DNA of 63,956 bases, filler included, from Sphacelaria rigidula (lineage: Eukaryota), in assembly GCA_964200075.2 (NCBI GenBank). It is 6 parts of 6 records of this genome, joined end to end, with 100 filler letters (N's around TTAATTAATTAA, not from the genome) between each part and the next. Parts side by side here need not be neighbours in the genome. Positions count along the whole stretch, not along the records: positions 42,707 to 53,281 come from CAXNAA020006256.1; 5 more parts are not named here. One strand, written 5' to 3'. A program made the translations under genes and the position numbers. Shown in pieces: positions 10,679 to 63,867 of this stretch. Positions within the stretch are counted from its first letter, which is position 1, and every line of letters starts with the position of its first letter. Below the pieces are notes generated by a model, which saw only the letters and a list, made by a program, of their open reading frames with translations, ran no database searches and was not told where the DNA came from.

Positions 10679-10692
10679 CATACATTACGAAG

Positions 10693-19700: not shown

Positions 19701-21180
19701 CTTCGGCGGTCTTTGTAATGCCTATGCTGGTGAAAGCCTCCGCCTCAGCATCCGAGAATATGGAGGCGTCGTCGACGACGATGTTCACCGAACCGACCGC
19801 CATAACCGCATCTTCTCCAGACTTCGGGCAGTCAAATATCGTGTGACCTTCCTCCCCGCAATTGCAACAGTACCTATCCGGACAATCTCTCGATCGATGT
19901 GTTGTCATCTTCTGACAAATGTGACAGCGCCACATCATCGTAGCCTCCAATGGACTGACTATTGGGCGGTGGAGTCGACTGATGGCTGCTTGTGTCCTGG
20001 TCCCCGTAGCCACCGCGACCGGGGCCCTGGCTCTTCCTCGGTTTTCCCTTCCGGCGCGAGCCCTTGGGTCTGCTGGGTTGGCCCTTGATAGCAAGGGCCC
20101 AGTCGCCTGAGGAAGCCTTAATTCCCTTGGCGAGCTTCTGCATGTAAGGTGTCGATTCAAAACGTTTTCGAATCGAGCCCACCACGATTTCCCTCGTGAG
20201 GGGTCCCTCACGGTCCTCGAGCATCTGCTTCCGGAGGTTGTACTCAGCAGGAAGGTTATTCACAAATCTCACGAGGATCTGTGCTTTCGTTCAGTCGATG
20301 CGGTCCATATACGATCTTAAATGCCTGGTCACTTCTTCCATCGCGGTCAGCTTCTGAATCGGGTAATCACGAACGCCAATCTTCACCTGACCATATTTCT
20401 CCAACAGTTCCAACCCAGCTCCGTTGGTCCTGGGGCTGTAGAACTCTTTCGGTCCACGCCACAAAGCTGCCGGAGAGGGGATTCGGTACATAATATCCCA
20501 GTCCCGCTTGCTATCTGAACTCGCCATTAGCATCTGCCTAGCTTGAACGTTGGCAGCTACTATGTCCTTGCCGTTCCATGCTTTCAAGTAACGCACTGAC
20601 AGCTTCGTGTTTTCCCACCTCCACGTCATGAGAGCTATCAAAAGACATGGTAAAAACCCAATCGATTCCTTCGCTCCTTCCGAAACTTGTGAGTTCGTGT
20701 TGGTATTGGGAACATTTTGAACTCTTCCTGGAAACGTTGGGGACAGCGACCTTGAATATTGGTACATCAACAACACTTTTGAACACTTAGTCAACCGTGA
20801 CCGTAGGTAGCGACTGACTCATTCATGGGGTCTAGACCCCCAGCTCCCTCGCTTCCAGTCCTGTGGTCGCTCCCAGGTGGAGCTCCCTGTCCGCTTTCGC
20901 GATAGCGCCGGTGGCCTCGGGCCACGCTAGATTCTATCAATCGGGTGTAGTTCTTGTGTCGCTCGGGTTTCCCCCCAGGGGATTCTACACTCTCGATGAC
21001 GCCGTTCCACCGTGCGCTACCGGACTCGTGATCATCTTCGATGCCATCTACTCTACTCTGTAGTGCAGTCTGCTTTGCCTGCACGCCTCTACCAAGACTG
21101 GTCAGAGCACTGAACTGACTGTTGAACTGACTCACCATGTTTTCAAGCTGAGCACTTACTAAGTCTGCTCCCTCTGAGGC
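16704..21180 (-). mobile_element. Degenerate Ty1/Copia LTR retrotransposon
   Basis: Domains in minus-strand order: gag (21138-19874), two Zn knuckles (CHICQKMTTHRSRDC, CCNCGEEGHTIFDC), protease WVFDTG (~19620), GAG-pre-integrase H..H (~19170), RT N-terminus (18450-18190) and RT/RNase H (17947-17267: PYRSAVEGLMWL, YCDADCAN..DRRSVS..QHCVTL.TTEAE). Many stops and frameshifts; integrase core missing. Candidate 3' LTR 16704-16923 (TGTTCAT..ATGAACA) follows a G-tract PPT; LTR limits are tentative. Confidence 0.92.
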
Positions 21181-21604
21181 ATCCTACGGTGGGGGGGGGG
21201 GCGTACTCATTTGTCGCTTGCCTTAGTCATTTGACCATTGACCACGCATCCCTTTNNNNNNNNNNNNNNNNNNNNNNNNNNNNNNNNNNNNNNNNNNNNT
21301 TAATTAATTAANNNNNNNNNNNNNNNNNNNNNNNNNNNNNNNNNNNNNNNNNNNNCTGAAGGCGAGACGTCCGTTTCCGCGTGGCCATATCTCTCGAGTA
21401 ACATGTTTTTTTCGCGATTGTTTTCGAGGCCGGGGTGCCAATGCCCCCCCGAATGATGTGCGTGAAAATTTCGGAGCGAAAACGGTCAAAATGGCGTGTT
21501 TGGCGGTTTTCGCGTTTCTGGCCATTTTTCGTACCCTTCTTGGGCAAAAAACGAGAAGGTATACCTTTTCTACGCCATTGCTCAAAAGAAATCGATGTTG
21601 GCAT

Positions 21605-30800: not shown

Positions 30801-31137
30801 TAGAAAAAAGTATTTGATTGTGTATTCTTTTGTCCGGGGTATGAAACACTGCACCTCTCTGGACAATATATGGTCAGTAGACGCAATAGTCCCATACTTT
30901 ACGTGGCACATTTTCATCTATACAGCAACTGCTGACCACATGTTGTCCAAGGTATGAAACACCTGTGCAGGTATGAAACACCTGTGCTGTCCCTCGTACT
31001 GCCATATTTTTTTGCGCGAGAAACAAACATGGCTACTTGTTGCTCAATGGATCAGAAAGGACAAAAATAATGTAATACACGCAATCACCCACGCACGCCC
31101 ACACACACACACACACACATGCGCACACAGTCATCAC

Positions 31138-31695
31138 CTGGAAGGAGTACTGGAGTACGTACAGCCAGAAAATAGCCCCGTACGGATCTATCGCCTCGCG
31201 AAGTCGATTAACGGTCGCCCAGCTCCAACACACCACTAGGGCGATCGGATACAGCCGTAACCGATTCACGATCCCCATCGAAGTCGACGACCGCGATGGC
31301 CGCGACGACCGCCCCCCTCCCCCTCCCCCGCCCCCACTTCGCCTTCCCGACGTCCCCCAGCTCCCTCCCCCGTAGTCATCTCCCCACTCGGTATCCGGTG
31401 GACCGGATCGGGTATCCTGCTCCTCTAGCGGTTCGTCGTACACAACCATCGCAGCCTCGAACCCCTTGATGGCGCTGTATACACGATAGCACATGTACGC
31501 ATTGATCGCGACGGCAACCCAGAGGGGTACATAGATTATACTGAACCTCCAGAAGGTACCCCACTCCAGAGACTTGAGGTCCCTCGCTGTGATTGAACAC
31601 CAAGCGCCCGCGTCGCCGTAGCTGTCCGTGCTGAAGGGCAGGGCGGCCATGACCAGAGGAACGGTCCAGCACCATGCCATCACGGAGCGGAAGCG
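31138..31695 (-). CDS. Internal exon of a GCR1/cAMP-receptor-like (Dicty_CAR-type) 7TM receptor, about TM4-TM6
   Basis: 558-nt phase-0 exon (ttcag|CGC..CAG|gtgatg): WCWTVPLVMAALPFSTDSYGDAGAWCSI..FWRFSIIYVPLW..RLRLYPIALVVCWSWATVNRL. These motifs are typical of the plant GCR1 and Dictyostelium cAR/Crl family. Confidence 0.85.
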
Positions 31696-32116
31696 CTGAA
31701 ATTTCGGAGTCAAGAATTTTTTAGAAGGACGGTAAGGGGGGCGGGGGGGGGAGGGAGGAAATATTGACATCAGTTCTCAATCCTCAATCCTCAATACTGC
31801 TCGTTATTACTGAGTATGGCATGCATGGTCATGAGTACACCCCCCCCCCCCCCCGGGGGGGGGGGACAAGATAAAAGTAAGCGAAAAAAAACATATGAAG
31901 GGGAAAGAAGCGCCGCGACGGGAAGTGGGAGNNNNNNNNNNNNNNNNNNNNNNNNNNNNNNNNNNNNNNNNNNNNTTAATTAATTAANNNNNNNNNNNNN
32001 NNNNNNNNNNNNNNNNNNNNNNNNNNNNNNNCCCCCCCCCCCCCGGGCACGGTCTCGCGTGGCCCCTTTCTCCTGCGCAGGAACGCACAGCGCCGCTCTC
32101 CTCCCCCCCCCCCCCC

Positions 32117-38330: not shown

Positions 38331-40602
38331 GGCTGAATACAACGAGCACCTAAACAAAAAGTGACAATCCTCTGGTGAGCCGGATTGGGAACAAACACTG
38401 TTTGCTTGTCTAGCAGTACAGTAAATCCTTCCGTGAGGCCACCAAAAGAGCCCCACGTTGTGACAGTGAAAGTGCAGACTAAAGTGGAGCAGAACCTCAA
38501 CGGGAGCAGAAAAAAGAAGTGCGGCGTACAACGTAACCAGTCTTTGTACTTGGAGTTTGTTCCTCAGCAGCCTTTCTGATACAGCGGTCAAAAAGCGATG
38601 TGAGCAAACACCGATCCGTATCATCGAACATGAAGCACGACTCGTGGAGACTCAAATTGTGTTAGATGTTGCACTGTACCCCAACAAACCAGTGACGTTA
38701 CATCCCACATTGGCACGTGTTTAACCTGCAGTCACAGTGAACAACAATGCTGCAGAGGCAGTGACAGATGATTCCGCATCGGCTTTGCCTACAATCGGCC
38801 TGAAGTCCATCCGCTCACATCCAACTCGGGATACCGGGTCCACCGTATCTCTGGATCTGGATCTTTGGATCTAACAAGTGCAGACGATGCACTTATCAAG
38901 AGTTTTGAACTCATTTCTGTTGACCTTATGTTAAAAGACCAGACCCTACCCGTCGAGGCGTGTTTTGTTTTTCAACTGTCGCCTTCTAGGTGGGAAAGCC
39001 ATCTCACTCTACTCGAAGATATGTTCAAGGCGCTCAAGCCAGCGGGTCTCACCCTGAAACCATCGACCGTATAGTTTGGACCAAAAGAGCTTTAATCACC
39101 TGAGACACAAACTTTCATCAGATGGTATCAAGATTGGAGACGGCGAAAAACGACCAAGATTAAACCGTTACACATTCAGTGCTTGTTGTAATAAACTTTG
39201 TGGGAAAATGTATGCGAAATTTTAGCGGAAATGTCTCGCCTTTGGTAGATCTTGCACCAAAAGAGGCGACAGCACTACATTCTAGGAATGTTCTGCAGTT
39301 GTACTAGCAATACATCATAACGCTCCTTTTTGTGGGGTCGACATTTCATCTGTGCGACGGATCAAGTCACATTGAGATATCTATATACGACGCAAGACAC
39401 AAGCACCATATTGACTTGGTGGGCAACTGCACTGTAGCATTACGCTTTCACAGTGCAGCACAAACCGGGGAAATTAAGGGTAATCCCTGACACTCTGTAA
39501 CGACCGTTGAAATTCGAGCAGCAACAGGAAGGTGCAGTCAAACCTTTGCTCGCACCAATTTGTCGTAACCTCCCAGAGGACCCTGCTGCACAGAGCGAGA
39601 CCACAACGACCGTTCCAAATTTCAAGGGGGTACGTGAACAATTTTGAAGAGTGCAAAGTTATAGAGAACGTTTTATCGTCAAGTCAACCGATGCCAGCGC
39701 AACAAATATGTTCATGATTGTTGACAAGCAGAAATTGCAAACCGGGCAGGCAAACGAGTATGGCCGACTCGTTCAATATGTTCTTGATGAAAATGCGCCA
39801 ATACTGGAAATAGAAACATGGGCTTCCATGTTGTGCTATTCAGTCCGAGACTGTATGTTGTTCAAGTCGCACACACCAGGACACCTCCGAAAAATAGGCA
39901 CCTATCTCGATCAATTCGCGCCAACATACCCTCCAGTGGGGTTGGATTTGCCCTCGTATCACGACCATGCGTTGTCCGGCGGTCACCTCGCACTTCAATC
40001 GACATACGAAAACATCAGACAAACGTACTGGTGGCCAAACATCAGCAAAAATGTTCATAGATGGCGCATCGACTACCAAGCTTGTCAACGCCGCAAAACG
40101 ACTCATAATTGTCTAAAGTTGCCCACAGGCCACGTACCAGTAAAGAGGCCGTTCCAGCGAGAATCGGGAGTTCTGTTCAAATACAAGATGAATTCAAATT
40201 CGTCCGCTGGAGTACCGCACGAAATATATGATATTCGTGATGGCCCATTTCACAGGGCGATGCACTGTACTGGTTCCAAACAAATCAGCCGTTATAGTAG
40301 CGAAAATGCTGGCCGACCGAGTTTTCACAGCATTCGGCACACCAGAAAAGTTGCACTCTAATCAAGACAGAGTTGGATAATTGCTTGGTAAGTCAGTTGC
40401 AAACGCTCCTCAAGTGTGAGAAAACACGCACAAAACCTTTCCGCCCTAAAGGCAACTTAGTAGTCTCGGAACGAGTACGCTCAAATTTACACGCCACGTT
40501 AGCAACGCGCAGTTCGGCCGAGCAAGACAACTGGGCAACTATGCTGTCCCTTGCGCAGATGGTGTACAATATATCATACGTACAATATACGACAGTGCAG
40601 AA

Positions 40603-41113: not shown

Positions 41114-44100
41114 GTGCAGAAGACCTGGTAGTATCTCATGTTTGGTCGGCAGCTGAAGTTACCGGTTGGAATAATCCTAGGCTTTCCCAATGAGGGGCAC
41201 GCAGCAGATACCGAATGAAGAGTACACGGTATAAACGAAAAACAGCTTGCAGCTAGCTTTTGAACTCGCAAGGAGCAACTTGAAGGAAATACGGACAAGC
41301 AGAAAGCAAGAAATGACTAACTAAAGCTACACTCGATCTTCACACCTGCCCAAAAAGTATTTTTACATCGACTACATCCAGTCGCGGCCGGCCCAAATCG
41401 AAAACTAGTATCACCGTGGCGAGACCCGTACACAATCTGTTCTCAGGCATCTCCAGTGGTATACAAAGTCAAGTCAGGCGACGATGCCGAAGGAACGTTA
41501 ATACACCTCGCGCGCTTGAAACGGTATTATTCACGAGAGAAACCACCGGTCCCCGATTCCGATCGCTCTACCGATTTTTTCCTGGGACTTTTCCTGGGAA
41601 AAAGGTTGTTTCCGCCGCAGTTGGACCGTCCGGATGTCACGAACCATAGATCGAACACTTCATAGTTGACAAAGGGATGAGGCATAAACGTGGTTCAGGC
41701 AGAAATAACCACTCAACTGCAAGTACCGTCTTCGACTCAAAGGTCACGTTCTATCAGCAGGCCTAAGGTACACAGCGGAAGGGGCTCTACAATGTCGACA
41801 CCTTACACGCGCGTATAGAATCAAATACAACAACGCGCCTTGACCTGACCCGCCCTCTCAAAATACGAGAAAAATAAAGCAGGCTGGCCGTCGGCATCGC
41901 GAAAATGCAGGAGAAACGTTTTTTAAGTTACAGTCACGATAACTGGAGTATGAAGACAATATGGTCGTCACGGTTCTTGTGACGTCATCCGTGAAGAGAG
42001 ACTTGGTTCAATTATTTGAGCTCTCATCAGCAAGAAGGGATCGCGCTGAGGAGGATAACGGTGAAAGCTTTTTCGACTCACAACAAAACCTCCGAGGATA
42101 GAAGTGGCACGCACCATTGTTTCTGTCTCTGACAGCATCCTTCCCCCGTTTACCCTGTAACGTGGAAGTCACCAGTAGTTTCACTACACTGCAAGTCATC
42201 ACACGGAGCTTGCACTGACGTGTCATTCTATACGATAATCTATGCATGTTATTTATCCGATGCCAAGTCACATGACGGAACCTTGCATAAAAAAGTAAAC
42301 CCAAGGTTTTCCAGCAAACCTTTACATGAACTTGTAGAGGAATGTTGATGCAATGTACTGGTTAGTGTTTACTCAGCCCCCAGTGCAGAGGATACGAAAC
42401 GTTCAGATACAGGCCAGTATAAAAGTATCACAATAATACACACAACGTGAAATCCAGGTAGTCCCGTTTCCTCGAATTCTCGCCTCGATCCCTCGAAAAT
42501 AGACTCGATAAGATTCGAAGGGGGGGGGGTGTACTCATGATCATGCATGCCATAGTCATTAGACCGTCGACCTCGCATCCCTACAATGCCGGGAGGGAGC
42601 CCGCTANNNNNNNNNNNNNNNNNNNNNNNNNNNNNNNNNNNNNNNNNNNNTTAATTAATTAANNNNNNNNNNNNNNNNNNNNNNNNNNNNNNNNNNNNNN
42701 NNNNNNGTCAGCCGTGGCTTACCACTAGTTATCATTATTCTTATTCAAAATGCGCCGTACTCATAAATATTTGTATCAAAGGAGAAGGTCTAAGACGTCT
42801 AAGGTCGCAAGAAATCAACTGCTGCGTAAAGTATACCGTAATTGAAGCAGGGGGTGTTTCGGCCGCGTTTTTTACGTCATTAGAGCCAAGGAATAGCAGG
42901 GACGGTATTGGAAAGGCGAGCCTACGTCTGTGACCACGGGTTCGCGAGATCGGACTAATGTGCGGAAATAATAATAATAATAATAAAGAGCCACACTCCA
43001 CATTCACTCCTGCAACATGGCTTGATTCTTTTCCAATTTTGAAAAGCCGAGGTGATGGAGGATCAAATTGTCTCTTTCCGGATACTCTGGGCATTGTTGT
43101 ACGTGTCGTAGTTACCACGAATCAGAGTTTTTCCCGTCAGGTGCCTTGGAGCGTATCTTAATTGGGACATTTACCTCTAGCTTCCGACACGTTGTGCGTG
43201 AGTTTCTGTTTCAGTACCTCTCAATGTAAAACGCGGGAGAGGGTGGTGAGAAGTGCCGAAACCGACAGTATTTCCTCTATTGTTTCCCGTGTGCACGGCG
43301 TGGCATATAGTACAGATACAGTTCAGTCCTGCCGACGCTGCACGCGTGCGTTGAATCTCACGAAGGATGCAGAAGGTGAAGATTGTACGCGAGATGGAAC
43401 CAGGGACTGAATCTGGCCGAGCGTTTCGAACAAATTTTGCAGGCCGAAATGCAAGAAAAAAACGAGAAAACATTTGGTGGGCCACACTATTAACGACGGG
43501 AAGCAAGCACGAATGCGGACGTGCTAGTTCCCAGTAGAAATCATGAGCAAATCACTGGAATAGGGATGACGACCTTTCTTGTCTGCCCTACATATGCGTT
43601 CAATTGTGGAAGATACCTCTTCGCAGTGACATATCAGAGACTGATGCTACACATGTACAAAGAACCAGCGCAAGCAGGGACAAAGTAGGAACGGTCCGGA
43701 AGGTCCAGATTACCGAGGATCCTGTAATGCCGACGTGACTCGACAACTCGGGGTGATGTCAAGAAGAGCAAATATTGGGACGGTCCAACATCCCCCGAGG
43801 TCTTGGTCGCCCCTGGCGACCACTTCTAGTCTGGCCCAGCTTCTTGCCTACATATACAAGAGGAAAATCATCGCTAGCCTCGGAGTTCCTTCGGCATCAG
43901 GACGGCAGCCTCCCCCGTAGGTCTCTGACTATTTCAGCGATACGCCTTCGTCACACAATCCTCAAATCAAGATATAGTGCACATGAGACGTGAAACGCAT
44001 GAAAATATAGAGCCCCAACCTTGTCGTAGGCTTGGTTGGAAAATGCGACGGGATGTCGAGCTCGAACAACATTCGTGGAAAAGACACGAAGTCTGAATCC

Positions 44101-44977: not shown

Positions 44978-45179
44978 CAAGGGCAGGTCGAGTAGAGTAT
45001 ACTCGATTGCGGGGTATTTTGAAAGTCGTACTCAAATTAAACAAATTGGGGGTAGGTTTTTAGGGATCGCTTTCCAGTTATTTTTCGGGTACAACTTTCA
45101 ACACTCTACTCTTTTGAGTACCTCAAGTACGTCTTTCAAAATACCCCGCAATTGAGCATACTCTACTCGACCGGCGCTG
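44978..45179. mobile_element. hAT-type MITE, about 200 bp
   Basis: 40-bp inverted repeat with 2 mismatches (44986-45025 vs 45133-45172). Near-perfect 8-bp TSD AAAATAAC/AAAACAAC. Confidence 0.8.
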
Positions 45180-46216
45180 AAAACAACACAAACGCACCAC
45201 CACACCCCCCGTAGAAACCGATGCTTAGCTAAAAATTAATTTGCCACAACTGATCGTAAGGAGACAAAGGGAACGACAACTGCCGAACTTGCACAGCCTT
45301 TCAACTCCGCCCGAGCAGCTGAAACGCGATGCGGGAAACATAAGTAAAGAGATCTTAAACTCAACGCAAACGTGTTTGTTGAAATACAGTTACCACCACC
45401 GGTGGCACAGTTGACACTCACAATGGACGAACAAACCCCTCATGTAATATCTACTCTGCACCTACGATGACAACAGCTTTGACCAAAAACTTGACTCTAC
45501 GTGCTGACGGGGTGAAATAGCCAGCCCCGAGTCACCGCACGACGTGAAAAGTGAGGGTGAGCATAATGCCCGCAACGCAGTGAATAAATCAACACGTAGG
45601 TAGTAACAGGATACATGGGCAACGAACCACAAACAAGCCCCCTATGGCATGCCCCGCATGATTAATGCAGGTTCAAAAAATGCCTCTTTCGTCGAGCGGC
45701 ATATTTACTAGAAAATGCTGATTGTACACAACACGACACAATACAATAATACCTGGTTGCCGTAATCCTGCACGAGCTGAAAACAACTAGACAGCAACAA
45801 AACATCTTGCACACTACAACCCAAATCCCCAGAAACGCGAAAGCCCATTTCAGAAACTGGAAGTAGGAAAAATAAATAAACCATTGATGGTCCGATACGC
45901 CGCTTGGATTGCCCTGCAACAACAGTATACGCCATGACTATACGGAGCAAAATCAAGACATTACGCCGCCTCCAGCCTTCGGATCCTGGACCCGTCCCAG
46001 TGTTACTGCGGCGGAGAGCAGCGTTGAACGTTCACGACCAATCAGTTTGTGCATTGTATAATACACACCACACACGAAGGAACACACTACGCCCAACCAC
46101 AGCGCCACTTTCCCACAAGTGTTGGGTCACATTCGGCCTATCCAGCTCCCAGGATAAAGAGTCCAAACCCCTGCAATGCGCACTTAATCCAAGAAGTTCT
46201 TGTTCGCGCCCCCTAG

Positions 46217-49200
46217 CTAAACGTGTTCGAAAGAGGGTACCCCGCCGACTCGGCGTGTCCAAAGCAAGCGTTTCCGCCGACCCTCGACAGAAGACTGCTG
46301 CGTGTCCGCATCGGAATTATTCTGGACACATTGAGCGCCTTGCCTTGGGGTATCCACAATTCTAGTCTTATTCGACTTGAACAGCTGAATTCTCCGCATT
46401 TCTCCGTTTCGGTCGTTCTGATCTCCTGGCCGGTAAAACAGAACCCCAAACATCAAAGGTACCACGAGCCAAAACCCGCTGATTTCTCCCAAAGTACCCA
46501 CAATATCAAGGGGATCTATTGCCGAAAGACGCTGGTAGCTCTGCGAGCGGACGTCAAACTGGATCGAAGCCAACGTATCTGTCCCGTAGTCCTCCGCTAG
46601 AGACTCGGCATTTTCGGCGTTATGCCATGCTGACACCGTCGTACCGGCCACCGCATAGGTGTGAGATACTTCTTCTGCCAGGTTCACACTCTGACTGTAC
46701 GTTAAGAACCCGCGGACGAACGGAACCTCCGTGGGATCGAAGCTTATCGGTGAGTAGAGAGAGATGGGCGGTCGGCTCACGATTTCTGCGTCGGCGCCTC
46801 CTTCCACAAGATACAATTTCACGCTCTCGTGGGCGCCTCGGTTCGCCGTGGCGTTATAGAAACTGTTCCAGAACACCAGCATGTGGAAGTTCCACACCTA
46901 TTGACACAATGCACGGCCACAACATATTGGGGAAATGGGGTATACCGGCAGTGAACGCAACTGTGCTGGCACTGCGGCATAAATGTGCTCGCAAGAATAT
47001 GTCGCGAAGGGCACAACGTAGGTGACGATGCAACACGTTACAAGATATGACATGGATCGTGGTACTCTGTACGGAATGCAAGCTCGACGATTTTTCCCGC
47101 ATGGTGGGACATGTGTGGGCAGCTGCGTAGCGTGTGGATGATTCTCCTGCGCCAACCGTTGTTCCACTAGCCCCCTACGTCACAGCTGCGCGTGCTTCAC
47201 CTCTTCCCCCTCCCTCTCCTCCTTATGAGAATCCAACCGCGGATGTATGTCATGGCAGAGCGGGGCCAATTGTAGGCTACTACTACGCCTCAGCCGTGGG
47301 GCAAACTAGCCTACGGAAAATAGGTCGCGGGACCTACCACGACATATTTATTCCAGGTTGGCTACGTACAAGCGGAATAGGGAAGGATAATTAATCCAAT
47401 GGTAGATTACAGACCGCTACCAAGCCATAGTCCAGAAGGCTCCTTCTTATCTCCGGCACTATTCCGAGGACGGTTGGCATTGGTTTGGTTTACTCACATG
47501 CTCCTGAGAGTACAGGGGCTCCGGACACCGAACAATCGCTTGGCGGGCTTACGCGCACCAACTCCCAATCTTAGACAATGCCTGATACGGCCGACTACAC
47601 CGGAAAATACTTGAGATGATGTTTGATGCTCAAAAACAATAAATTTCGTGGTGTAATATCCATGCTATAAATACCAGCATGGCGGATGAAGACGATTGCA
47701 ATAGCAGGATCGATGTATACTGTGCATCCCTATATATGCGATGACAGGAGAAAATGGCTTGCCTGCGATGTCTCCTTGGCTTCCAAAATCGATAGCTTAA
47801 ACCTCGTGCAAGTGTCCGAAACCTGCTCTGGAAACATCACCACCGTAGTCGGGTAATCTTCATAGCCTGTGGGTGTTGTGTAGCCCGTGTAGTTATACCT
47901 ATCGGTGGGCAGGAATACGCATGGGAACAACATTGTGGTCATCACTCTCGAGTAGAGTTGACCACGGAGAGCCTTCGTTCCCAGTGCGCCATGTTTTCCA
48001 TTCGCGCGTTGGGGTATTAGCAGAGCACAAAGTTCCAGCGGTGCAAGTCGCCGTTGTCTGAGCTAAGCTACTATGCCACGATATTAATAGTAATATAGAC
48101 TCGAGTTTTCATAGATTACAAACTTAACCCTTTGACCGCGAGGGTAGGTCACCTGCTGGATTGGCCTTAATATTCACTTGAAAGAGTATGCATGGTCCAG
48201 ATGGACTACCCGCACCGCGGTCCAGGGGTTAATTAAACTTCCATAACATCTCGACGTTTCAACAGCTAATGGGGGTGGATAGCGCCGCCAGTACCCGACG
48301 ATATCTAGGGTATCTAGGGTATCTACTGCCGAAATTATCGAGTATTCCAGGTTGCCTGAGATACTGAGACTCCGAAACACCAAGGCTGACGTCGGTATAC
48401 CCTTTAGAGGTTGGCAGCGTTCACCACGGTATCTATTCATCACAGTAATGCACGGTGATGTTTGAACGGTAACTGGTCACCGTGATACTCATCGGTACAG
48501 GAAGCAGCCACCATGATGATGCACCGTAAGTTTTGGACGGTAACGGGCCACTCTTGTGCTCATTGGTACGGGCATCAGCCACTACGGGAGTGCACGATAG
48601 TGTCGGTTCTTTTGTGTACATCTTCGGCGTTTCGCAACCCACGGCAATAACCTATGCCCTGACAAGACAAAATCATACATGCACCTGTTGTTTGCAAAAT
48701 CCATACGCGGGTAGACCGGCGTCCAGAATAAATGGGACGACAACACACACACACGCAAGCCCAGACTACTGAACACCGGCAGCTTTTCGCAGCTACAAAA
48801 TCAAAGAGGGCTCATGAAATCCAGAGCTACGGCCAGCGGTATCAACTACTTGTTCAGTGGTCAGGAGCCGTGAAAACACCGCAAGTTGAAAACAGCGTGT
48901 ACTTCCGGGAGATAATAAAAAGGAAAAGCGGGAAAAATGCCAGAACTAGATGAACAGGCTTCCTCCCAATCATTCAGTGGGGCGGCCAACGTTTCACTAC
49001 GAGGCATTGCAATAACGAAGTATGAATGCGATGTACGCTCAGTTCACCCGTAAACGAAAACATCCCCTGTGAAGCTCTCCGCACAAGCAGCACCATTACT
49101 GTCTTCATCCCAACATCCCACTCTCGATCCGTAGGTGTCTCCCTCGAAGCAAAACCAAATGTCCGGCAGCTGGTGTAGGGTATTGCGACGGACGTTTGCG

Positions 49201-49850
49201 AGAGCAGAGACAATTCAATTCAGGAGCACAAGTGGCTTCATTCGATCTTTCCGCAAGGCGAAGAGCAACCATTCACCACGTGATGGCACTACTACAGTAC
49301 GTGTGAACGGTTCGTCTCGAAGTAGTTGTCAGACCTCAGGTGCAGGGACATCGACACACATGGGGTCATCGCTAAAGATTGACGACAAATGATCACCGTC
49401 CCGAATGAAGGGTTTCGCGGGACTGGCTGATCGCTCCATATCTAGGACCTCCAGTGTTTGGTTTGAAAATTTACGAGTTCTTGCGGTGTTCGAACCTTAA
49501 ACGCGCAGCAGGAATCAAACGATATTGAAAAACCAATTTCAACAATACATGGTCCAATGGTCCCACAACTCGCTCAAAATAAGGTGTCCACGTCAGTGCT
49601 TTTGACTCAAGCAATCCATCCAGCCACAGAGAAAAAGAGGTTAAGCCTGGCCCGGGCAGCATTGCAAGCTCACCTCAGGGTAGCGTTTTAACTTTGTGGG
49701 CTAAATACGTGAGTAGCAATACCTTCGGGAAATGTACACGTGGCGTCGGACACCCGCTATATTCTCGCCATGCCTCACCTGAAAAGGCTCTTCCACAAGC
49801 TCCAGCTCCACGGGCGGACTCGCACGTTGGTCGAACCCGCTTTTCAGTGC
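46217..49850 (-). CDS. Partial gene: candidate 2-TM trimeric ion channel (PAC/TMEM206- or DEG/ENaC-like). Exons 49850-49779, 49169-49048, 47898-47763, 46897-46217
   Basis: Four phase-compatible, stop-free exons give ALKSGFDQRASPPVELELVEEPFQ|LPDIWFCF..|..|VWNFHMLVFW..LASIQFDVRSQSYQRLSAIDPLDIVGTLGEISGFWLVVPLMFGVLFY..stop. One hydrophobic helix follows a beta-rich ectodomain with NxT sequons. The gene call is firm; the family call is inference. Confidence 0.7.
48128..48228. mobile_element. Miniature piggyBac-like element
   Basis: TTAA|CCCTTTGACCGCG...CGCGGTCCAGGGG|TTAA: TTAA target duplication and CCC-starting TIRs. Confidence 0.7.
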
Positions 49851-50221
49851 CTGAAGAGAGGAAGGGCAAGGAGGCCTTGCGTCAGGAGAGGGAGTGACCT
49901 CGTGCAAGCGACGAGTGCTTTCGCGGTACTGGTGTGGGTGTTCGTATTCAGGTAACAGTACCAAGAACAGAATTGCATACCAGTGGCAGACATAACGAAC
50001 GAAACGTCGCCAGCTTTCCAAAACATCTTGTGCTTTATGATGTCTCAATGATATGGGTGACATTCGATAGAAAACTACTCCTTTGAAGGTTCCCCGACAG
50101 TGTTGGTTTGATCAATCGTGAACGACAGTAAGTAGGTGCGAAGGTCAGATAAAGTGTTGTGCCGAGTCGTTATAGGCTCACAAACAACCATCAGACAGCG
50201 CGGTTTGCGATACGGGCCATA

Positions 50222-51400: not shown

Positions 51401-53746
51401 TACGAGTGAGGTGCCATGTTGTTTTTCGATTTACCTGGATTTAGGTCGAAGATAATTCTCGGCCCTAACAGCGACCTCGATGTTCGCGTCTGCGCTGGGG
51501 CGGGTTTCCAGCCCCGGGTACTACAACGGAAGAAACTCGAGTTGCAGGTTCACCCATGTGGCATGTGCAAAATCAAGAACGAATGTTAGAGTTAAGCAAG
51601 CACTAGTATGACTTCCTGTGTGCCGGCTTGCCTAAAGTTGTCAGCAACCTAGCTACCGCAGCGGGTGTGCAGTCGCTCTTGATCAATACGATGCTATAGT
51701 GCGAAAGAGAGCAGTCATCAGGCGACTGTCGCCTGCACTGTGTTGGACACTTCCTTTTGGGGGGGGCAATCCCAGTCAGATTTTCTCACAACCTCGTTTC
51801 TTATGAGACGGCCGCTGCTGTAATTTACTCCACCTCCCCATTCCTCATCAAACATCTTATAGGTATCTACACTCGGAAGAACGCACGCAAGCGCCCCTAT
51901 TCGAATATGACCGGACTCAGTCCTTGTACATGCGGACTAGGATTCATTCGGGTACAATTCGGTTCAGACTGGACATGCAGTTGATTTTGGGGGCGGCATG
52001 ATAATGGACCATTTAAGTGGTCGATAGTGTAGTATGGCAGCTTGTACCCCATATCAGGCGATGTGCACGGTGCCCACTTCCGCTGCCACTTGGTTTTTGC
52101 TGCATATTTCAGCTCTGGAGGAGCTTGCATAGTTTGTGTTTGGCGAGTGAAGAATAAGTGAGATTGATACAAAATATATATTACGTTTTCCCCCCCTGTC
52201 TTGAGCACCTCGTCCATGAGGCTTTCGATAATTCTAGCGTTCAGATAGCGTCGTAGATCAGTGACCATATAGTTGAAGAATTATTCCGACTGGATAGCCA
52301 CACGGGAAAAATACTTGACTATACAGGGGTTGATTGAACGTTCGAGTAGTCCTCACGTGAGCTTGATCACCAGCAGCAAGAAGCTGAGAGACAGTTGAGC
52401 GATGGCTACCCCCAAAGACAGTAAGCACTAAACAGATGCCAGCCGAGAAGATTCGGCTGATGGAAGCCAAGCAGAGATAGTTGATTGAGGCCGCGAAGCA
52501 GGAGGCAAGACGAGACGCAATTGCCAAATTTGAGAGTGAAAGAAGCATGCATACGGAGAGTAGAGGATACGATTGAGAGTAAAGAGCGGTCAATAAGTGA
52601 ATGAACCGTTTCAATTCCTAAAAGCCCCTCTACGAGGCCCGATATGCTTTCTGTAGCAGCTTGCCTCTGAGGCCCTTGATATCCCTGAGCAGGATACCGA
52701 CGTGTAGCTGTAAGCACACGCTAGAGATGGAGCCAAAGAAAAGCACACACGGAATGAAAAAATGGCTATATTAAAGCGAATTATCGAAGCCACTCTCAAT
52801 CAGCGCTCTACTCTCAATATCACGAAAACGTTGATAGAAGTGTCTTGAGTCCCTTATTTCATAGGTCCCGGTTAGGGTTTTCCACGAGTCTAAGGAGGAA
52901 CTGAGAAGATAGTTGGGATATGTTGCAGTAGATAACGCTCAACGAGCTTGGGAAATTACCATCGATAACATCACAGCTCGTCAGATAGTGGATAAGAATT
53001 GATTACTCTTGAGACGGGGTTGGGTGAGTCGCCTCCAGTCTTTGTGAGCAGGGCAAATCTGATAAGACTCAAAAGACAGCAATGCGGCGTTGTGATTCTC
53101 AACACTATCGTATGTGCGTCGTCTGTCATCGGTATTGACATCCAAAGGGCTATGTTGCTTGCAATGCCTGAGATAGACACTGCAACATTAGAACATACCA
53201 TCAAAACTGTGGGGGGGTGTACTCATGATCATGCATGCCGTAGTCATCAGACCATTGACCTCGCATCCCTACAATGCCGGGNNNNNNNNNNNNNNNNNNN
53301 NNNNNNNNNNNNNNNNNNNNNNNNNTTAATTAATTAANNNNNNNNNNNNNNNNNNNNNNNNNNNNNNNNNNNNNNNNNNNNGGGTGTGGCGTGGGGGCGC
53401 GGGGGGTGGTGGGAGGGGTGGGGGGGGGAGGGGGGGGGAGGGGGGGTGAGGGTACACCCTGTTACAACGGATATGTCGATAGCATGTTCCGTACAGCAAA
53501 AGCCGTAAACATGTCATTGAGTTTGGACGGACTGTGCGCTCAAGTCCCGCTGTGCTGCTACACGAAGTTGGTGGTAGGGGTAACGTTGCGACAAGTTGGG
53601 GAAAACATGTCCACAGGAGAAGGGAATAGCAATCCAAGAGTTGAGGGTAACGGCGGCGCATGTGGACCTCAGACTCTAGCAGTGCTTAAAGGACTCGGGC
53701 TGAATGTCAGTTGAGCCAAGATCACCAACGCTGAACCCTTTTCCTC

Positions 53747-55753: not shown

Positions 55754-58700
55754 ATGTCGTCGTTCATGCAAGATACAAGAGATCCTGAAGAAAGCCTTAT
55801 CCTTCTAGAGCTTCTAGGAGAAGGGTGAGTATTCTTTGTGCTGTCATGGTATGTCCCCACGTTGGATTTTTTAAATCGGCCGACACGCCGGAGTCGTGCG
55901 GTGCATTCATGGCGGAGCACCTTCATACTACGGTAGTCCGTAGTACGGTAGTCTCGGCACAGCATGCCAGTATGCCAGTATGCCAGCCTTGTGCGTATCG
56001 TGTATGGTTTTGTGTAGTGAGATGTAACCCGTTTAGGGTATGTGTCTGCCTGCCGTCTTTTTCATCAGGCCTTGCAGTAGAACAGGACAACACAGGGTAG
56101 TGGTGTAACATCAGTGGTAGCTCACAGCACAGGCAGGATACCGGGACGATGAACAGCATACGACCGCATTTTGTCGTACAGTGGTAAATCTCCGTGATTT
56201 TCCTCAGGAGCGTTGGCATGTTCTCTCTGCTTCAAACTTCCGCCATGTGCAGGTCGTATGGAGCGGTGTACCGAGCGGAACGACGGAGCGATGGGACTGA
56301 AGTAGCCGTAAAAATCATCCCGGCGGATAATCCCGCTGACTTGCTGAAAGAGGTCGACATTATGTTGGCTTGTGCAAGCCCTTACATAGTCCAGTTGCAC
56401 GACTGCTTCTACAAGGTACGAAACTGAAGATGGTGCAGTACAAAGTAGTAGAGAGCACCTATCACCCATCAGCAGGGAGGTTTGTACGGTCATTTACTCG
56501 ACTTCAGGGTGTACGGGAGCCTTCTCGTTATTTCACTGGTGCTCTCAGCTGCAAAGCACCCACACATGCATCTTGTGCGACGAGCACAGGCCAAATTGAA
56601 GCTCAACCGCTATCCTGACCCTTTGACTGCCAAGGTTCTAGCTGCTGAAGTGGCATCATTTTCACTTGAAAAATAATCGGAATACCCGGATGACCCACCT
56701 AGCCGCCAAAGGGTTCATTCATTATACTCTCGAGTACGCGTAAAATGCTACTGCCAACGGCTATTTGAATCGCACGGTTCGTGCGACGAAGGTTTGAACA
56801 TGCGCACATACCCCGCTACGTGCGAATCAGCTTGTGAGTACACTGTTGAACTACACCATCTGACCTTCCTCAAGCTGGTTGTATGGTGGCGTACTGTATA
56901 CTGTAACGGTACGAAGGGTGGGGTGCTGCGCCGCTCACTGTTGTCGCTGCACACCGTTGACATGTTCCTGGTGTGCAACGATGACAAAACAGTACAGTCG
57001 ACACAGGGGGTCTCAACTACACTATGTTTTGTAGAGTTAATCGGGACTGACCATCGGTCGGTAATATATTGTCTTTCCCTTGCTCAAAAAAATAAATCAA
57101 CCATCCAACCATCCATCCTCAAACAATCTTTAATTTAATTAACTTTGATTATTTATAACCCGTATTATTACTTTCAAATAATATTATGTTGATCGAACAT
57201 GAAAAAAAATCGGGGAGATAGCTTCACCGATAGTTTTGGAGGGGTTTCATACAGAGTGGAGATGCATCAAAACAAGGGGAAGCGGAGTTCATAGACAATC
57301 CCGTGCTTTGCACCACCACAGAGCACAGACACGCAGACGGGTACATAGTACAGCTGTGGACTACAAGTACGCACGCGTGCTGTTCTCAAGGAACTCCGAC
57401 GCTGGAGAGGGTGTACAGCAGAATGCGGCCCCCGCTGGCGGTGGGGCTTCGCGCAAATCGGAGTAAAATATGAAAGTCATAATATAATAGTGCAGTCCGC
57501 GCTTGAGAGGTCCACGGTAAGGACAAATCATCACGGATTCGAATCACCAAACCCACGATTTCTTCGGCCTGATTACCCAAAAGGGAGAAAAAGTTGACCG
57601 CTGGTCCACGAGGTATTCATGCAACTTTTGCGCCATTCCACATGTCTGGGCTGCGTGTACCTGGGTTGCAACGCTGAAAACAAAGCCTAGAGATTGATTC
57701 GTGCGATTCGCATCAATTCCACTACAACCAAGTATTTTCCAGACGAATCATTGATTTGTCCGACCCTTGGAGAGATCCAAGCCGACACACCGTTCGCCCA
57801 CGGTGTGATGTTGGATGTTTGGAAAGCACTTGGCAGATATTCTTGCACAGCACAAAATCCTCTGGCGTGCTGGCGTGTCATTTCTCACGTAAATACGTTG
57901 GGAAAGCAGGGGAACTCAGTAGGATATATCCGTCGGTGTGTGGTGTGGGTTGTCGAAAGAACGGAACTTCAGTATCAAACAAAAAAAAAGTACCCGATGT
58001 TGGTTGAGCACGGGAGCACAGTAGAGTGTACTTGTCGGGGTGTGGTGTCGCTTGTTTTAAGAAAAAAGAGATTGTACTAATCAACCCATCTAGAGAGTAC
58101 CCGACAAAGAGATTAATTCTCAACAGATTGTGTACGCTTGTACACGTTCGTCAAAAGACAGAACCCCCACCCCCCCCAAACGTTACACAAAAACCTTGCA
58201 CATATCCTGTCTCCTTCCTGATTCGCCGTCTGTGGTCACGATCTATCCCCCAGTGTGGCGATCGTTTTCTCGCTACTCCTAGGGTTGCTCCTTTCCAATT
58301 ATATGGAGGCATTGTACGGAAATTATGACTCATCATCCGCAGCGTCAGTCGGAGACGGTCATACTCTAAGGCCTAAAATATGGTGAGAGACTAGAGGGCA
58401 GACGTCCTTGGAAGAGAGTTCTCCACATCAGCACAGATTCCTGGCGCTACAGACCAGCTTTCGCGCGTTTGATAGCTAGATGGGAGAGGATGCGTATCAC
58501 TACGAAGGTGGAAAGAGTTTGTGCACGATATGTATCCGCGCACGGTAATACCCGACGAAGTTGACACTGAGTGTTCCAAGTGCCAGTACAACGAGTACTG
58601 TACTATGGAACTGACTGTACGATGCGAGCCACGCCTCTACTGGGCTAGAATACCCGCGATTCATTCGTGAAAGAAATCGAATTGCAGCTCGCACTCTGTC

Positions 58701-61700
58701 CTATTCTAGAACCAAGTGGAAACTCCTTACAGGGGCGATCACGTGCATGCCAGAGGAGGGTAAATATCTTCACGTGGGAGCACACTACGGAAGAATATCT
58801 GATTAATTCTGATAGAAGAAAGCTACAGCAACTGCCTTTGTTATTTTCAGACAGTCGTGGTAACGCCCACGCTAGGCCTGGCGCTGTGAGGGAGGAGACG
58901 TTGCCCCCTGCCCGAGCAGGTCCGCAGTGGTCCTTGACAGAAGACACTCATCTCCTCGGCTGCGTTGTGCGGCCGCATCTTGCTCGGCACGGCGTATAAA
59001 ACTCAGGGGCATCTGCCTGTAACACGTGGAGGACCTCAACTGGTGGTCATTTCCGGCTTTGATGCCAGCTTCGACCAACAGGGGGCCGATGTAAACAACA
59101 AGGATGGCAAGATCTACTCCTGTCTCCGCGCGGATTTCATATCGTTACCCTCTAGAATTGTCATCAGAAAAAAAAAATGTTTTCGGGATCACTGCAGCAT
59201 CGTGCATAATCATCCTTTCAAGCCACGCAGCGCACAAAACGCCTTGGATCGCCGAAACTGCTGCGTCAACTCCTGCCTGTGGCTTCAGTCTACACATACG
59301 TCAAGTTTCAGCATTGTTGGGGTGCATAATCTCCAAAAATACCGCCTCCATATTATTGAAAAGGAATAGCACTGTGTTTACGAGTAACGTATCAAACAGT
59401 TTCATGCAACCTTCGGTTACTTTCCACATTTCCCCATCCGACACGTCCCGTTCCTCCGTTTATAGTCCACATTCGGCCACTGTGAGTTGTACTCTCCACG
59501 TTTTGCCATCCCACAGCGGCTATTCTGTACATCTAGTCCCCCTTCACTCGACTACTGCTATACCTCCTTTCTGGCAGATCTAGGTCTCCCACCCGAAATC
59601 GCAGTTTCACTTTTTTTGCCAAGCCCACTGGGCGATGCAGATATGTTATCATTCTTCTACCCTCTCTCAACCCCGCGTAAACCTTCAGCTACTTTTCCTT
59701 GTCTACTTTACTAACCGATCGCCCCGGTGGCTCAGTTAGTAACCTCGAAATCTTCTACCGGTTGGGTCGTGGGTTCAAATCTCGGCTGATCTGGGTTTTT
59801 TTTCTTACACCATGCCCAACAGTGGAGAGCGACTATGTGGTGGGTACACAGATTTCGACTTAACGGTCGACGAGGGAAAGGGCCTGCATAACCTCTCTCG
59901 CGATAAAAAATGAAGGCAAGCACCGCCGAAGAAAGGTAGGGTACTAAAGAGAAATGAAGACAAAAAAGCTCCTGTTTGACCCCGGCTGGTACGCCCACGT
60001 ATACCGAAAGGTGTGAACAGGCGTCCAGAATAAATGGGACGACAATACAACACACACTTTGCGTCTTAGCGCTTCTTCTTCCCTTGTTTCCATTATGGTT
60101 CTTACTTTGGTTTTGTACTCGCCACATTCACCTATGGGCCCATGTCCTGCCATACTTTATCGACTACGCTCTTCCACCTTTTTCCAGCCTGCACTTCCGT
60201 TACTTGATTCCATACGGCCCTAGCAACTTTGACTGGCAAATTCTTGGCATGCTCCTTACGCTATACGAGCTGGGCCAGCCAACAATAGGTGGTTCTCTCG
60301 CTCAGGCGACGCACGACGCGATATTAGGAGATGGACGCTAAAATTTTGACAGCAGCTTTTTATGATCAACATGAAAAATATCACGTGAGCAGCGGAGAAA
60401 AATAGAAGAAAACAGGAAGTTATGGGGATTTTAAATTTCAGCAATAACACGATAATGTCATTGGTCCAGGAAAAAAATGAGAATCTACAGCTGCTCACGG
60501 GACGTATCCTTTCCTTGAGTGCAGAAGGTCTTCGTGAAAATTTCAGCTGAAGAGTCGTCGAATTTGGCCGTGCGTGCAATGTTCTGCGTGACGCTGCTGC
60601 ACCTCACCAATACCCAGTGCGGGGTGACTGCTGACGTGGACCCACCGCATTGAAAAAAGCACTCCGACACGCTGTCGCCCAACGATATGAGGCGCACCCC
60701 GTACTCCATACAGTACAATAACGTCATCGGCAATACGACGCCAATCGAACGGTTACGCAGTCCTTTGTCATCATGTGGGTCTGCGGTTCACAGTGATACT
60801 TCCATGGGGTTCATTCGGGAAACTGGGAAAGCTGTGGTGTGAGCAAGTTTTGCCGCTTTTAAGCTGGCCCAGCTCGTATTGCCATTTCAGACTTCTCAGG
60901 TTTCTATTTGTTCCAAGTGGGTACAATCCCAATTCTGTTCTCAACGTTGTAGTACTCATCGTTTTTGAGCATACAGGTATTTTCGAAGATGCTGTCATCT
61001 GTACTGTTTCCAGCTTTAAGTTCGCGTTCCCCTCCCATAGTTCTCCTGCATATTCCAGCTTTGGTGCAATCACATTCATCAGAATACACCTCTTGATCGT
61101 AATATCTAGGTGCGAATCTCTTAGAATCATCGTCACCTTGCCTATCTGTGCCTTAGCCGTTAATATTTATTTATTTATTTCCTCGTCTAGCATATTAAGC
61201 ACTTTTGCCACATTCTGCCATCTTCTCCACCATTCTCCACAATTTTATTCTGATCCGAGTTGCCCACATATTTCCCCACAGCCCATTTGTCCATAGTGTG
61301 TTGGCCTTTTGTATATCTAGAAAGAAATAGTACGTTGTCAGCCCGGCATCTTTCCTACCTTGAAGAATGTTACGTTTGTATGCACATTGTCTACGCAACT
61401 ACAGGGGGGTGGAGGGGGAAATTGGACTCGCACAGCGAACGCCCTCGACTTCGCTCGATCGCTCCCTGTGCTCGCCCGGCTCTATGCGCTCGATTTGTAT
61501 TACCGTAGTATCGAAGTTGTTCTGTTGGATCCTGTGAGTTTGAAGCCGCAGGTTCTGTCTCTTCGATAGTTTTTCTCGATTGAACCAATTCCGATCGCTC
61601 TCGTGAAAAGCAATAACTGTTTTCTGAAATTCTACTGATTCGTTGCGCTACTGTAAAAGCAAAAAACTACGTTTTTTAGTCCAATAAAAAAAGAACACCC

Positions 61701-62887
61701 TCCTGACAAAAGAGGTCTTACTCCGTATCACCCCGACGACACCAACTTGTTTTTTTTCGTCCTGAGCACATGTTTTATTTCCCAATATCTATCGACTCAT
61801 GAGTGCTAGAGAATCAAATATAAGAATCCAATTACAAAATTCGGCTCGTTTGTTTGCAGACTAGTACTGTTATCATTTCGTTTATTGCTACCGATACACA
61901 AGCCTAGCAGCGAGGAATTGGATGGTGCGGAGTTCCGAACCCGAACATTAGGGCGAGATCCTTCACCAGCCACACGCGTCATGTCCTGAACAATCAAACC
62001 AGACTTGCTCTTGACATTCTCGCTTTTCATTGCCATTTGTGTTGATTCCCAACGCTATGCTCTGCTTGCTCTGTTATCAGCCATGAACCACCCCTCGCCC
62101 TTGCCGGATGTAGAGAGATACTTCGGGGGGCTGATGTTCCGTCGCATTTTTTGTGGAATTTTCATTTGTAGACGCACGTTTCATACGGCACCTCGATGGA
62201 CGCCTCTGCCGCCCAAACTCTAATGCTCCCACCACTTTCCCGCGTTTGCAGGTGCTCAGTCTCGAAAGGAATGCGTGGTCAATGGTCAAACGACTAAGGC
62301 AAGCAACAAATGAGTACGCCCTCCCCCCCCCTCCCCTGCCCTTCCTCTGAATGCTATCTGCGCGTGGCACAGGACAACGAGGCATGGCTTGTCATGGATT
62401 TTGTCGGGGGCGGGAGTGTATGCGACATTTTGGAAGCGTGCGAAGTCACACTGTCAGAGGGAGAGGCCCGAGAGTGCGCAGCGTGGACAGTACTTGCGCT
62501 GGACTACTTACACAGTAATAGAAAATTGCACCGGGTGAGCTGCGGACTGCCTGCGGACAGCGTAATCGTTTTCTGCATGACGCTCAAGAGCGTGGCTATG
62601 GTTTGGATGGAGCTACAGTCTTTAGCATCAGCGTGATGCACACCCTTGATAATGACAAAAGCCTACATTTAGCAAAAGTGTTCTGCGTACAGTATGTAAC
62701 ATCGCGCCAACTGTCTACGGTGTGACTTGATAGCTGACACTAGATGGGTGTGCTCCCCTAAAGTATCTGCTGTTCGCATCGTGGCTGGTTTTTTACGCAT
62801 TTCATCATGCAGGACGTGAAGGCGGGAAATATTCTTCTGACTCTAGACGGCCGCGCGAAGTTGGCCGATTTCGGGGTTTCCAAGGAG
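55754..62887 (+). CDS. 5' half of an STE20 family (MST1/2-Hippo-like) Ser/Thr kinase; exons 55754-55824, 56253-56415, 62373-62534, 62813-62887
   Basis: Spliced translation MSSFMQDTRDPEESLILLELLGEG|SYGAVYRA..VAVKII..LLKEVDIM..YIVQLHDCFYK|DNEAWLVMDFVGGGSVCDI..YLHSNRKLHR|DVKAGNILLTLDGRAKLADFGVSKE. All introns GT-AG and phase-consistent. Confidence 0.93.
59716..60057 (+). mobile_element. tRNA-derived SINE nested in the LINE
   Basis: A box TGGCTCAGTTAG, B box GGTTCAAATC, CA tail; collinear with 27495-27895. Confidence 0.85.
60266..60876. mobile_element. Tc1/mariner-type MITE nested in the LINE
   Basis: TA|CGAGCTGGGCCAGC...GCTGGCCCAGCTCG|TA, a perfect 14-bp TIR. Removing it rejoins LINE codons KWQY-SVRSMP. 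Confidence 0.88.
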
Positions 62888-63867
62888 GTGAGACTTTTTG
62901 GGGGGAAGCAGTACCCTTATCATGAGCTGGCTACAGAAGCATAAGAGTCTTTCCCTACATCCTTCGTAAATAGCTGCGATTGAGAAGCCCAGCCTAGCAC
63001 ATTTACTTGTACACCATGTAAGAGCAAACGATCATATTGTTGAGCGATCTAAAATGCAGTTACTCTGCTTCGATGTCAACCCGAGTGTTGATTTTTAAAT
63101 TCGAAAATCTTGCAGCTTTGATGATGACACTCATGCCCATGCCCTATAGATGATGACGAGTGACCCCACTGTGTTCCGTTCTAAAATCTACTCTACACCT
63201 GAAGTCGATCCATATTAATGCTTGAGCCATCCCGTGGCAGGTAGGGTATGTTGTAACGAAATGGTCGCCTGAACCTAAGCCGACTTCCAGACCCTTCTTG
63301 AGGCAGTGAAGAGTACTGAAGAGTGTTTTTGATGTTGAAATTCCGCGACGTATAGCTTGTTGACGCACTAGTTCCGTGACAACGCACGTTTACAAGTGTG
63401 GACTCGTGAGGTCTTTTACATGGCCATGGCGCGCGCTTTCTGGCAGTGCATCATTTCTTGCGGAGCGAGACAAGTGTCACGAGAGATCTTCAAGCGTTGA
63501 GACGACGGACCCGTGTGGGGGTGCTCCATCGCCTTTTTTTTCATTGTTGATTCAGATGCCACCCGCTTGTGTACAGTTCTGTAGGCTGGTTCACGCTCAC
63601 AACCTAAAATTGTGCCATCAGCAAAAATGCATTTCGCAATATTTACCCGATAGTCGCATACATGGATATATACCATACTCACCACCATGAAAAGCTGAAG
63701 AGCGTGACACAGCTGGATTTGTGTCATACTGGTAGCGCGAAGGGCGAAAAGGTACTTCGACCAATCAGCGCCCTTCAAATTGTTCTGAAATTGAATACAC
63801 GAGTTCCAAGCCCAATTTTCACCGAACGTCCACATGCCTCAAATCGTGATGATCGCCATTGCGCACC

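Follow-up and report, generated by a model that had tools for sequence, protein, structure and literature searches.

We propose that a gene on the minus strand of a 63,956-nucleotide stretch of Sphacelaria rigidula DNA (this whole stretch is called the window here) encodes one subunit of a minimal, trimeric, two-helix channel of the DEG/ENaC-PAC superfamily, one that would pass cations with low selectivity. We hold this reading to be moderately probable. The gene belongs to an unnamed family that, as judged from its sequences, is expanded in brown algae, and modeling of a homolog leaves us with little doubt that the fold is the one seen in DEG/ENaC channels and in the proton-activated chloride channel PAC, in line with the two-helix superfamily fold named by an original prediction made from the DNA alone.

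The gene is real, spliced and under selection. It is not a product of chance, because its exons and phases recur in paralogs and because the ratio of nonsynonymous to synonymous substitution rates (dN/dS) is 0.22 and 0.25 against two of these paralogs (266 codons). The four exons that had been predicted to be spliced together join into 1008 nt, an open, stop-free frame of 336 codons; all four acceptors are AG, and the donors are GT, GT and GC. From 5' to 3' the gene is laid out as follows.

53281-49851, minus strand: repeat-rich intron running to the contig end; the exons for the first transmembrane helix (TM1) and the N-terminus lie outside the window, and a TM1 profile has no match within it.
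49850-49779, minus strand: first exon present, 72 nt and 24 codons, encoding the end of TM1, an invariant Pro and strand beta-1; assigned from AG/GT sites and frame, with the same 72-nt exon in paralogs and the Pro invariant in both clades of the family.
49169-49048, minus strand: exon 2, 122 nt, encoding LPDIWFC (strand beta-2, like the FPxVTxC of DEG/ENaC) and three Cys; assigned from frame, a contig piece of run X3 that starts at 49169, and the alignment of this segment to ASIC FPAVTFC by the family profile.
47898-47763, minus strand: exon 3, 136 nt, encoding the NYT sequon and the fourth Cys; assigned from frame and contiguous with the last exon on contigs from all three runs guessed to be RNA.
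47762-46898, minus strand: third intron, GC-AG, skipped in runs X1-X3 and present in X5, with a GC donor at the same place in contigs C3253, C9808 and C18877.
46897-46220, minus strand, with stop codon TAG at 46219-46217: last exon, 678 nt, 226 codons plus stop, encoding palm strands, the strand before the second transmembrane helix (TM2), TM2, a basic motif and a polar tail; assigned from the open reading frame and from strands and helix in the homolog model.
46504-46436, minus strand: TM2 (residues 242-264), with the predicted pore axis at G247-E248-x-x-G251 (E248 encoded at 46486-46484), from hydropathy, dN/dS and homolog trimer contacts.
46216-44140, minus strand: probable long 3' untranslated region, roughly 2 kb in extent and holding a repeat near 45007-45140; contigs of X1-X3 cover it and show neither strand nor end.

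The splice evidence comes from three of the four runs guessed to be RNA (X1-X3, all from one study and none on record as RNA), together with one DNA-like run (X5). In each of X1-X3 the assembled contig jumps from 47762/3 to 46896/7, whereas X5 is continuous over 45143-48151; the stretch 45130-46896 shares one transcript-like contig with the spliced exons. The GC donor of this third intron is a feature absent from the original prediction. We infer the first two junctions from the contig piece that starts at acceptor 49169 and from the depth of 9-10 in the bin 49767-50119, which is consistent with 72 nt at a depth of about 50. The exon pattern and phases are repeated in two paralogs, one on C3253 and one on C9808 plus C23179. 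The last exon is 65% and 62% identical to two paralogs. Selection is strongest on the pre-TM2 strand and TM2 (residues 218-266), where dN/dS falls to 0.04 and 0.06 against the same two paralogs; the values for the tail are 0.61 and 0.47.

The encoded protein carries every segment that had been singled out from the DNA: the quoted stretches, four ectodomain Cys (residues 31, 43, 53 and 95) and the sequons NYT at 67 and NAT at 125. About 227 residues separate the post-TM1 Pro from the Pro before TM2, close to the ~230 residues first estimated and the size of the PAC ectodomain, and the same span is 227 in the homolog P0001. There is a single hydrophobic peak, at residues 242-260, and the residues before TM2 include 33 acidic and 12 basic ones. 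Across the family, the ectodomain could be parsed in 17 of 19 members; it measures 208-238 residues in 15 of these 17 and holds 3-8 Cys. The P, P, C, G and G of the post-TM1 and pre-TM2 motifs are conserved in both family clades.

Structure prediction carries the assignment of the fold. The AlphaFold model of P0001, a homolog 58% identical to the window protein over 278 residues, was built from 54 sequences with a predicted local distance difference test score (pLDDT) of 75.9 and a predicted template modeling score (pTM) of 0.66, and places helices 90-122 and 355-377 on either side of a beta-sheet ectodomain. A single-sequence model of a second homolog, P0002 (54% identical over 296 residues), reached a pLDDT of 35.8 and was not used. 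When the P0001 model was compared with 48,161 chains by VIA, ranks 1-11 were all DEG/ENaC or PAC (Z 13.0-10.6), and rank 12 fell to Z 7.7 with 73 helical residues. The matches include ENaC (6wth_B; Z 13.0, root-mean-square deviation 3.4, 193 aligned), PDPNaC1 (9jf7_A; Z 12.9, 3.2, 224 aligned) and PAC (7ji3_A; Z 11.5, 5.7, 229 aligned); VIA on Foldseek's top 1000 similarly gave Z 12-13 for ENaC/ASIC and 11-11.7 for PAC. Foldseek itself returned only PAC or DEG/ENaC chains among the 41 matches listed, with PAC at ranks 1-12 and best E-values of 1.9e-10 for PAC, 2.8e-9 for PDPNaC1 and from 2.3e-7 for ASIC. Neither P2X nor ERGIC appears among the PDB matches listed by Foldseek or VIA, an absence that does not count against either, and a viral structure library gave no real match (best TM-score 0.17). 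In the ESM Atlas, the ten structure rows include PAC, ASIC4 and an ERGIC cluster, all below the bar for naming, and a TMEM206 cluster has a feature score of 0.86, which is a lead only. Which of PAC and DEG/ENaC is the closest fold thus depends on the method.

The weak signal that can be read from sequence points to DEG/ENaC, not PAC. Searched against 177,635 PDB sequences, the family profiles A1 and A3 each matched ASICs in 15 of 15 cases (E 0.012-0.68), and the alignments cover TM1 to FPAVTFC (beta-2) and, with no gap, the stretch that leads from the pre-TM2 strand into LLGDIGG. These are the two places at which FPxVTxC-type and LGDIGG-type motifs had been recognized in the DNA, and that reading holds. 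Pfam ASC (PF00858) matches 14 of 29 A1 members at E<=1, and its cut-off of 23.6 bits is passed by 3 of 20 relatives in the sister clade (34.4, 31.6 and 23.7 bits). PAC chains are absent from the matches of the PDB profile searches, and TMEM206 (PF15122) has no match in any Pfam scan of the window exons, P0001/P0002 or the relatives; nor do the ERGIC families PF07970 and PF13850 match P0001/P0002 and relatives in such scans. A six-frame search of the genome with Pfam ASC gave no matches, a result of little weight as the family is intron-split and diverged, and a phmmer search of P0029 against the PDB found one unrelated repeat protein.

With phmmer, 66 matches at E<=0.001 were found among 1.84 billion representatives, mostly single-exon fragments. 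The family splits into the clade of the window protein and a second, more varied clade (deep forks are unsure and branches long); the two are homologous (HHalign 98.7%, E 2.6e-16, 179 columns). Six of ten proteins looked up come from brown algae (Nemacystus, Choristocarpus twice, Scytosiphon twice, and Ectocarpus) and one from Chara braunii; of the other three, one includes an MMETSP member and two are unnamed. The closest named homologs of the window gene are brown algal, which bears out the algal origin first proposed. Within the S. rigidula genome the TM2 side of family members lies on 10 contigs, with a further exon on C18877; such counts are lower bounds, so that there are at least 10 loci. 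The Chara protein, P0061, matches the second clade (E 1.3e-13) over TM1 to beta-2; the genus is a classic subject for work on excitability in algae. Sampling beyond brown algae is poor, the final search with alignment A3 having given two proteins. A literature search found no publication on this brown-algal family, a weak negative given that subscription journals were thinly covered.

Some members depart from the common architecture. In P0061, a hypothetical protein, the two family motifs are present and a long stretch of low complexity is inserted into the ectodomain. Among the relatives P0035, P0039, P0047, P0048 and P0067, some have cytoplasmic WW domains; the ectodomain seems to occur twice in P0048, and P0067 is greatly extended at its N-terminus, features that may be fusions or gene-model errors.

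The TM1 exon had been expected to lie beyond the end of the scaffold, and the data agree. A TM1 profile built from 37 family segments does not match anywhere in the window, where it reaches 5.9 bits at best (E 2), but scores 36-64 bits in five of five other contigs tested, and the gene's contig, C6256 (42707-53281), ends at 53281. In full-length homologs, 113 (P0001) and 208 (P0002) residues precede the first residue of the window protein, and TM1 of P0001 lies at 97-115; the N-terminal segment of the homologs is a membrane anchor, not a signal peptide, so the original choice between these two was borne out in homologs. Three close TM1 exons exist in the genome (C7441, C23179 and C4586). Their mutual identity of 89-93% fits a trio of paralogs rather than the window gene, because in the last exon the paralogs share 85% identity with one another but about 75% with the window gene. 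A frame directly 5' of 49850 that looks hydrophobic was discarded as TM1, since the TM1 profile does not match it and an intron occupies this position in homologs. A link of C6256 through its end to C4586 or C7441 was likewise discarded: what these ends have in common is a widespread repeat, and the sequence identities are inconsistent with such a link. This very abundant short repeat, at 53211-53281 and at the end of C4586, has extreme depth in all runs and is possibly the terminus of a mobile element.

Trimeric assembly, part of the earlier proposal, is likely on the basis of prediction. A three-copy prediction of P0001 (residues 70-390) reached a score of 0.50, whereas the best of three controls stayed at 0.00; the runs agree in at least 57% of contacts, with a pLDDT of at least 58. 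The best-confidence contacts are E361-E361 and G364-G364, which correspond to E248 and G251 of the window protein. In the family profile alignment E248 falls on the Asp of ASIC1 LGDIGG, which we take to be the outer gate and a calcium site.

The motifs by which known channels select their ions are missing from this family. Of 84 proteins, most of them fragments, 35 TM2 segments and 37 pre-TM1 segments could be parsed. GAS (G-x-S) is the DEG/ENaC selectivity filter in TM2, and the HG motif lies before TM1. No G-x-S filter occurs in any of the 35 TM2 segments, and none has K or R within 11 residues after the TM2 glycine. HG is likewise found in none of the 37 homolog segments before TM1, which have W-x-P-x-x-V-V-x-x-H-R instead; these segments, from homologs only because the exon lies outside the window, were chosen by the family's own W-x-P motif, at about the place of HG. 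The anion filter of PAC is the TM2 lysine K320, which follows the crossing G313 by seven residues, and the substitution K319E turns human PAC cation-selective (PMC7904269).

From these features we infer the pore, the cation preference, the disulfides and the gating. Each gene product would form one subunit of the trimer, with both termini cytoplasmic. The acidic, glycosylated beta-sheet ectodomain of ~225 residues would surround a three-fold axis with a palm core and probably two disulfides; it would have no thumb and no ASIC acidic pocket, which we take to be missing because the ectodomain is 208-238 residues long with 3-8 Cys. Three TM2 helices are predicted to cross at the small residues G244, G247 and G251 and to line a central pore, in which three Glu (E248) would form a ring where ASIC G-D-I-G-G has Asp. 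Such a trimer probably conducts ions, though we hold this with less assurance than the assembly itself. Cations would pass with low selectivity, because an acidic ring is present and both the DEG/ENaC filter and the PAC lysine are absent, and a preference for cations is considerably easier to credit than one for anions. It is also proposed that a cue from outside or from the lumen moves the palm sheets and opens the pore, with protons, ions and osmotic change as candidates; pH gating is possible, without specific support.

Several observations weigh against this proposal. The fold and the trimer were predicted on P0001 and not on the window protein itself, and its similarity to solved chains in Foldseek is modest, with TM-scores of 0.31-0.41 by query and at most 0.57 by target. 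The ERGIC/Erv46 cluster in the Atlas structure rows has TM-scores of 0.35/0.54, below the naming bar. Pfam scans assign no family to the four exons of the window, so that the comparison with ASC and TMEM206 called for by the original prediction came out negative for these exons, and they find nothing significant for P0001/P0002. Profile A5, built from the window's clade alone, has no matches to PDB sequences, the PDB matches of the other profiles are weak (E>=0.012), and the ASC matches are limited to TM1-beta-2 (profile positions 11-104 of 455). Trimer scores are judged by a mark that 21 of 30 solved pairs and none of 23 single chains attained (17 of 29 and none of 30 for eukaryotes), but this calibration used two copies, not three; only one of seven eukaryote pairs without an older solved relative passed it, and the pass may reflect the model's memory of solved ASIC and PAC trimers. 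Glu at position 248 characterizes the window's clade alone; in the second clade N, S, A or T stands there. Finally, the assembly yielded no TM1 exon for the gene itself.

Similar evidence could arise from a non-conducting trimer on the same scaffold, such as a sensor, a structural protein or an Erv41/Erv46 (ERGIC)-like cargo adaptor of the endoplasmic reticulum and Golgi, in which the TM2 glycines would serve only for packing. The lack of both known filters from all 35 TM2 segments and the ERGIC cluster among the ten Atlas structure rows speak for such a protein, as do cytoplasmic WW domains, found by Pfam scan in 3 of 29 relatives, which suggest scaffolding; ERGIC/Erv46 is not known to be a channel. 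We nevertheless consider this alternative unlikely, since the clear solved-structure matches are all channels, weak sequence similarity to ASIC/ENaC is found at both transmembrane junctions, and strong selection on a ring of charged Glu at the axis is more readily explained by a pore than by packing.

It is improbable, in our estimate, that the protein is instead a PAC-like, proton-activated chloride channel. The original prediction held that a PAC-like protein fits better than an animal ENaC, and it stands in so far as Foldseek ranks PAC chains 1-12 and the ectodomain is close in size to that of PAC (chain range 65-334 in the alignment) and much smaller than that of ASIC (41-464); the TMEM206 cluster of the Atlas is a lead in the same direction. 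It does not stand in the VIA ranking, which places DEG/ENaC at or above PAC, in the sequence profiles, or in the filter, where PAC (PMC7904269) has a lysine seven residues after the glycine and all 35 segments lack K or R. The acidic TM2 residue of the window's clade and the lack of a PF15122 match argue in the same sense. A further reading accepts the family but takes the window copy to be a truncated duplicate without TM1 and no channel subunit. No TM1 exon is assignable to the window gene, the three found fitting the paralog trio, yet the open frame and the dN/dS of 0.22-0.25 make such a duplicate most improbable. Furthermore, in record 2 of run X1 a contig of 3002 nt extends for 1100 nt 5' of 47896. 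The window exons account for 196 of these; the remaining ~900 nt are enough for TM1 and an N-terminus of the kind seen in P0001/P0002 (113-208 residues), and the assembly (244 Mb) is in 27,214 contigs.

Returning to the proposed low-selectivity cation channel, the family is, by its defining features, neither DEG/ENaC proper nor PAC, and that it works similarly is a matter of prediction. With DEG/ENaC (ASIC, BASIC, ENaC, FaNaC and PDPNaC1/BRTNaC1; PF00858) it shares two transmembrane helices, P-x(11-13)-[FL]P-x4-C after TM1, a long pre-TM2 strand in register into L-G-[ED]-I-[SG]-G, the palm fold (Z 11-13), a predicted trimer with TM2 on the axis, and weak sequence similarity. Unlike these channels, it has an ectodomain of only ~225 residues with 4 Cys and without a Cys-rich thumb and finger or an acidic pocket, it lacks the HG motif and G-x-S filter, and its TM2 is shorter, with a Pro in the window's clade. 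With PAC (ASOR/TMEM206; PF15122) it shares the core fold and a compact ectodomain without large peripheral domains, but the two do not match in sequence (identity is 7-11% when structures are aligned), TM2 lacks the lysine filter, an acidic residue lies on the axis, and the algae have multiple genes. P2X has the same trimeric, two-helix architecture (PMC10378246) but is not among the PDB matches listed, and a viral P2X model gives E 0.014 and TM-score 0.17. Unnamed two-helix proteins of Mucoromycota and ciliates form the nearest clusters in the ESM Atlas, with 0.91-0.94 for language-model features and a TM-score of up to 0.64 by target for predicted structure; they are leads only, unaligned, with PF27811 (Y80K_N) on 19-43% of some, and are not among the 66 phmmer matches as far as these are named.

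A non-animal member of DEG/ENaC is, as such, already known. PMC10507113 describes Deg/ENaC homologs in the stramenopile Cafeteria roenbergensis and in Tunicaraptor unikontum, found with animal queries and covering one stramenopile species; in BLAST clustering these homologs fall with animal Deg/ENaC, and they are placed with clade B. Divergence is far greater in the brown-algal family, a distinction drawn from the published description and not from sequence comparison. PAC and DEG/ENaC share a fold and are described as unrelated in sequence (PMC7904269) or without apparent sequence homology (10.1101/2022.06.28.497943; PMC10378246), and their common ancestry has been called unclear (10.1101/2022.06.28.497943). 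A PAC-sized family with residual DEG/ENaC signal is an intermediate of the sort that makes this question testable. Tentatively, and with more doubt than belief, we suggest that the family is a surviving minimal DEG/ENaC-PAC form, PAC-sized yet traceable to DEG/ENaC, that links the two animal classes; the thumb and the sodium and chloride filters would then be later additions, and brown algae, with a relative in Chara, would have expanded the form to ten or more genes per genome as an ion-channel set with its own lower-pore motif. The absence of both filters offers a natural test of what passes through the bare scaffold, and brown algae gain a multi-gene set of candidate channels, at present annotated as unnamed proteins, that is open to expression, recording and knockout in Ectocarpus.

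Paired runs of N around a 12-base linker with stops in all frames interrupt the window at 10579-10678, 21256-21355, 31932-32031, 42607-42706 and 53282-53381. The window therefore seems to be a series of unconnected contigs of about 10.5 kb, with C6253 at 10679-21255, and features on either side of a linker, including anything past 53281, are no true neighbors of one another. Other parts of the window hold the following features.

17270-17947, minus strand: retrotransposon remnant, a copia-like frame by eye; no Pfam match.
31036-31776, minus strand: 247-codon frame matching Pfam Dicty_CAR at 22.4 bits (cut-off 21), part of a cyclic AMP (cAMP)-receptor-like G-protein-coupled receptor gene.
39648-40358, plus strand: retrotransposon remnant with an integrase zinc-binding domain (E 3.7e-13).
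About 56190-62940, plus strand: exons of a Ser/Thr protein kinase, STE20-like by eye; the one exon scanned had no Pfam match.

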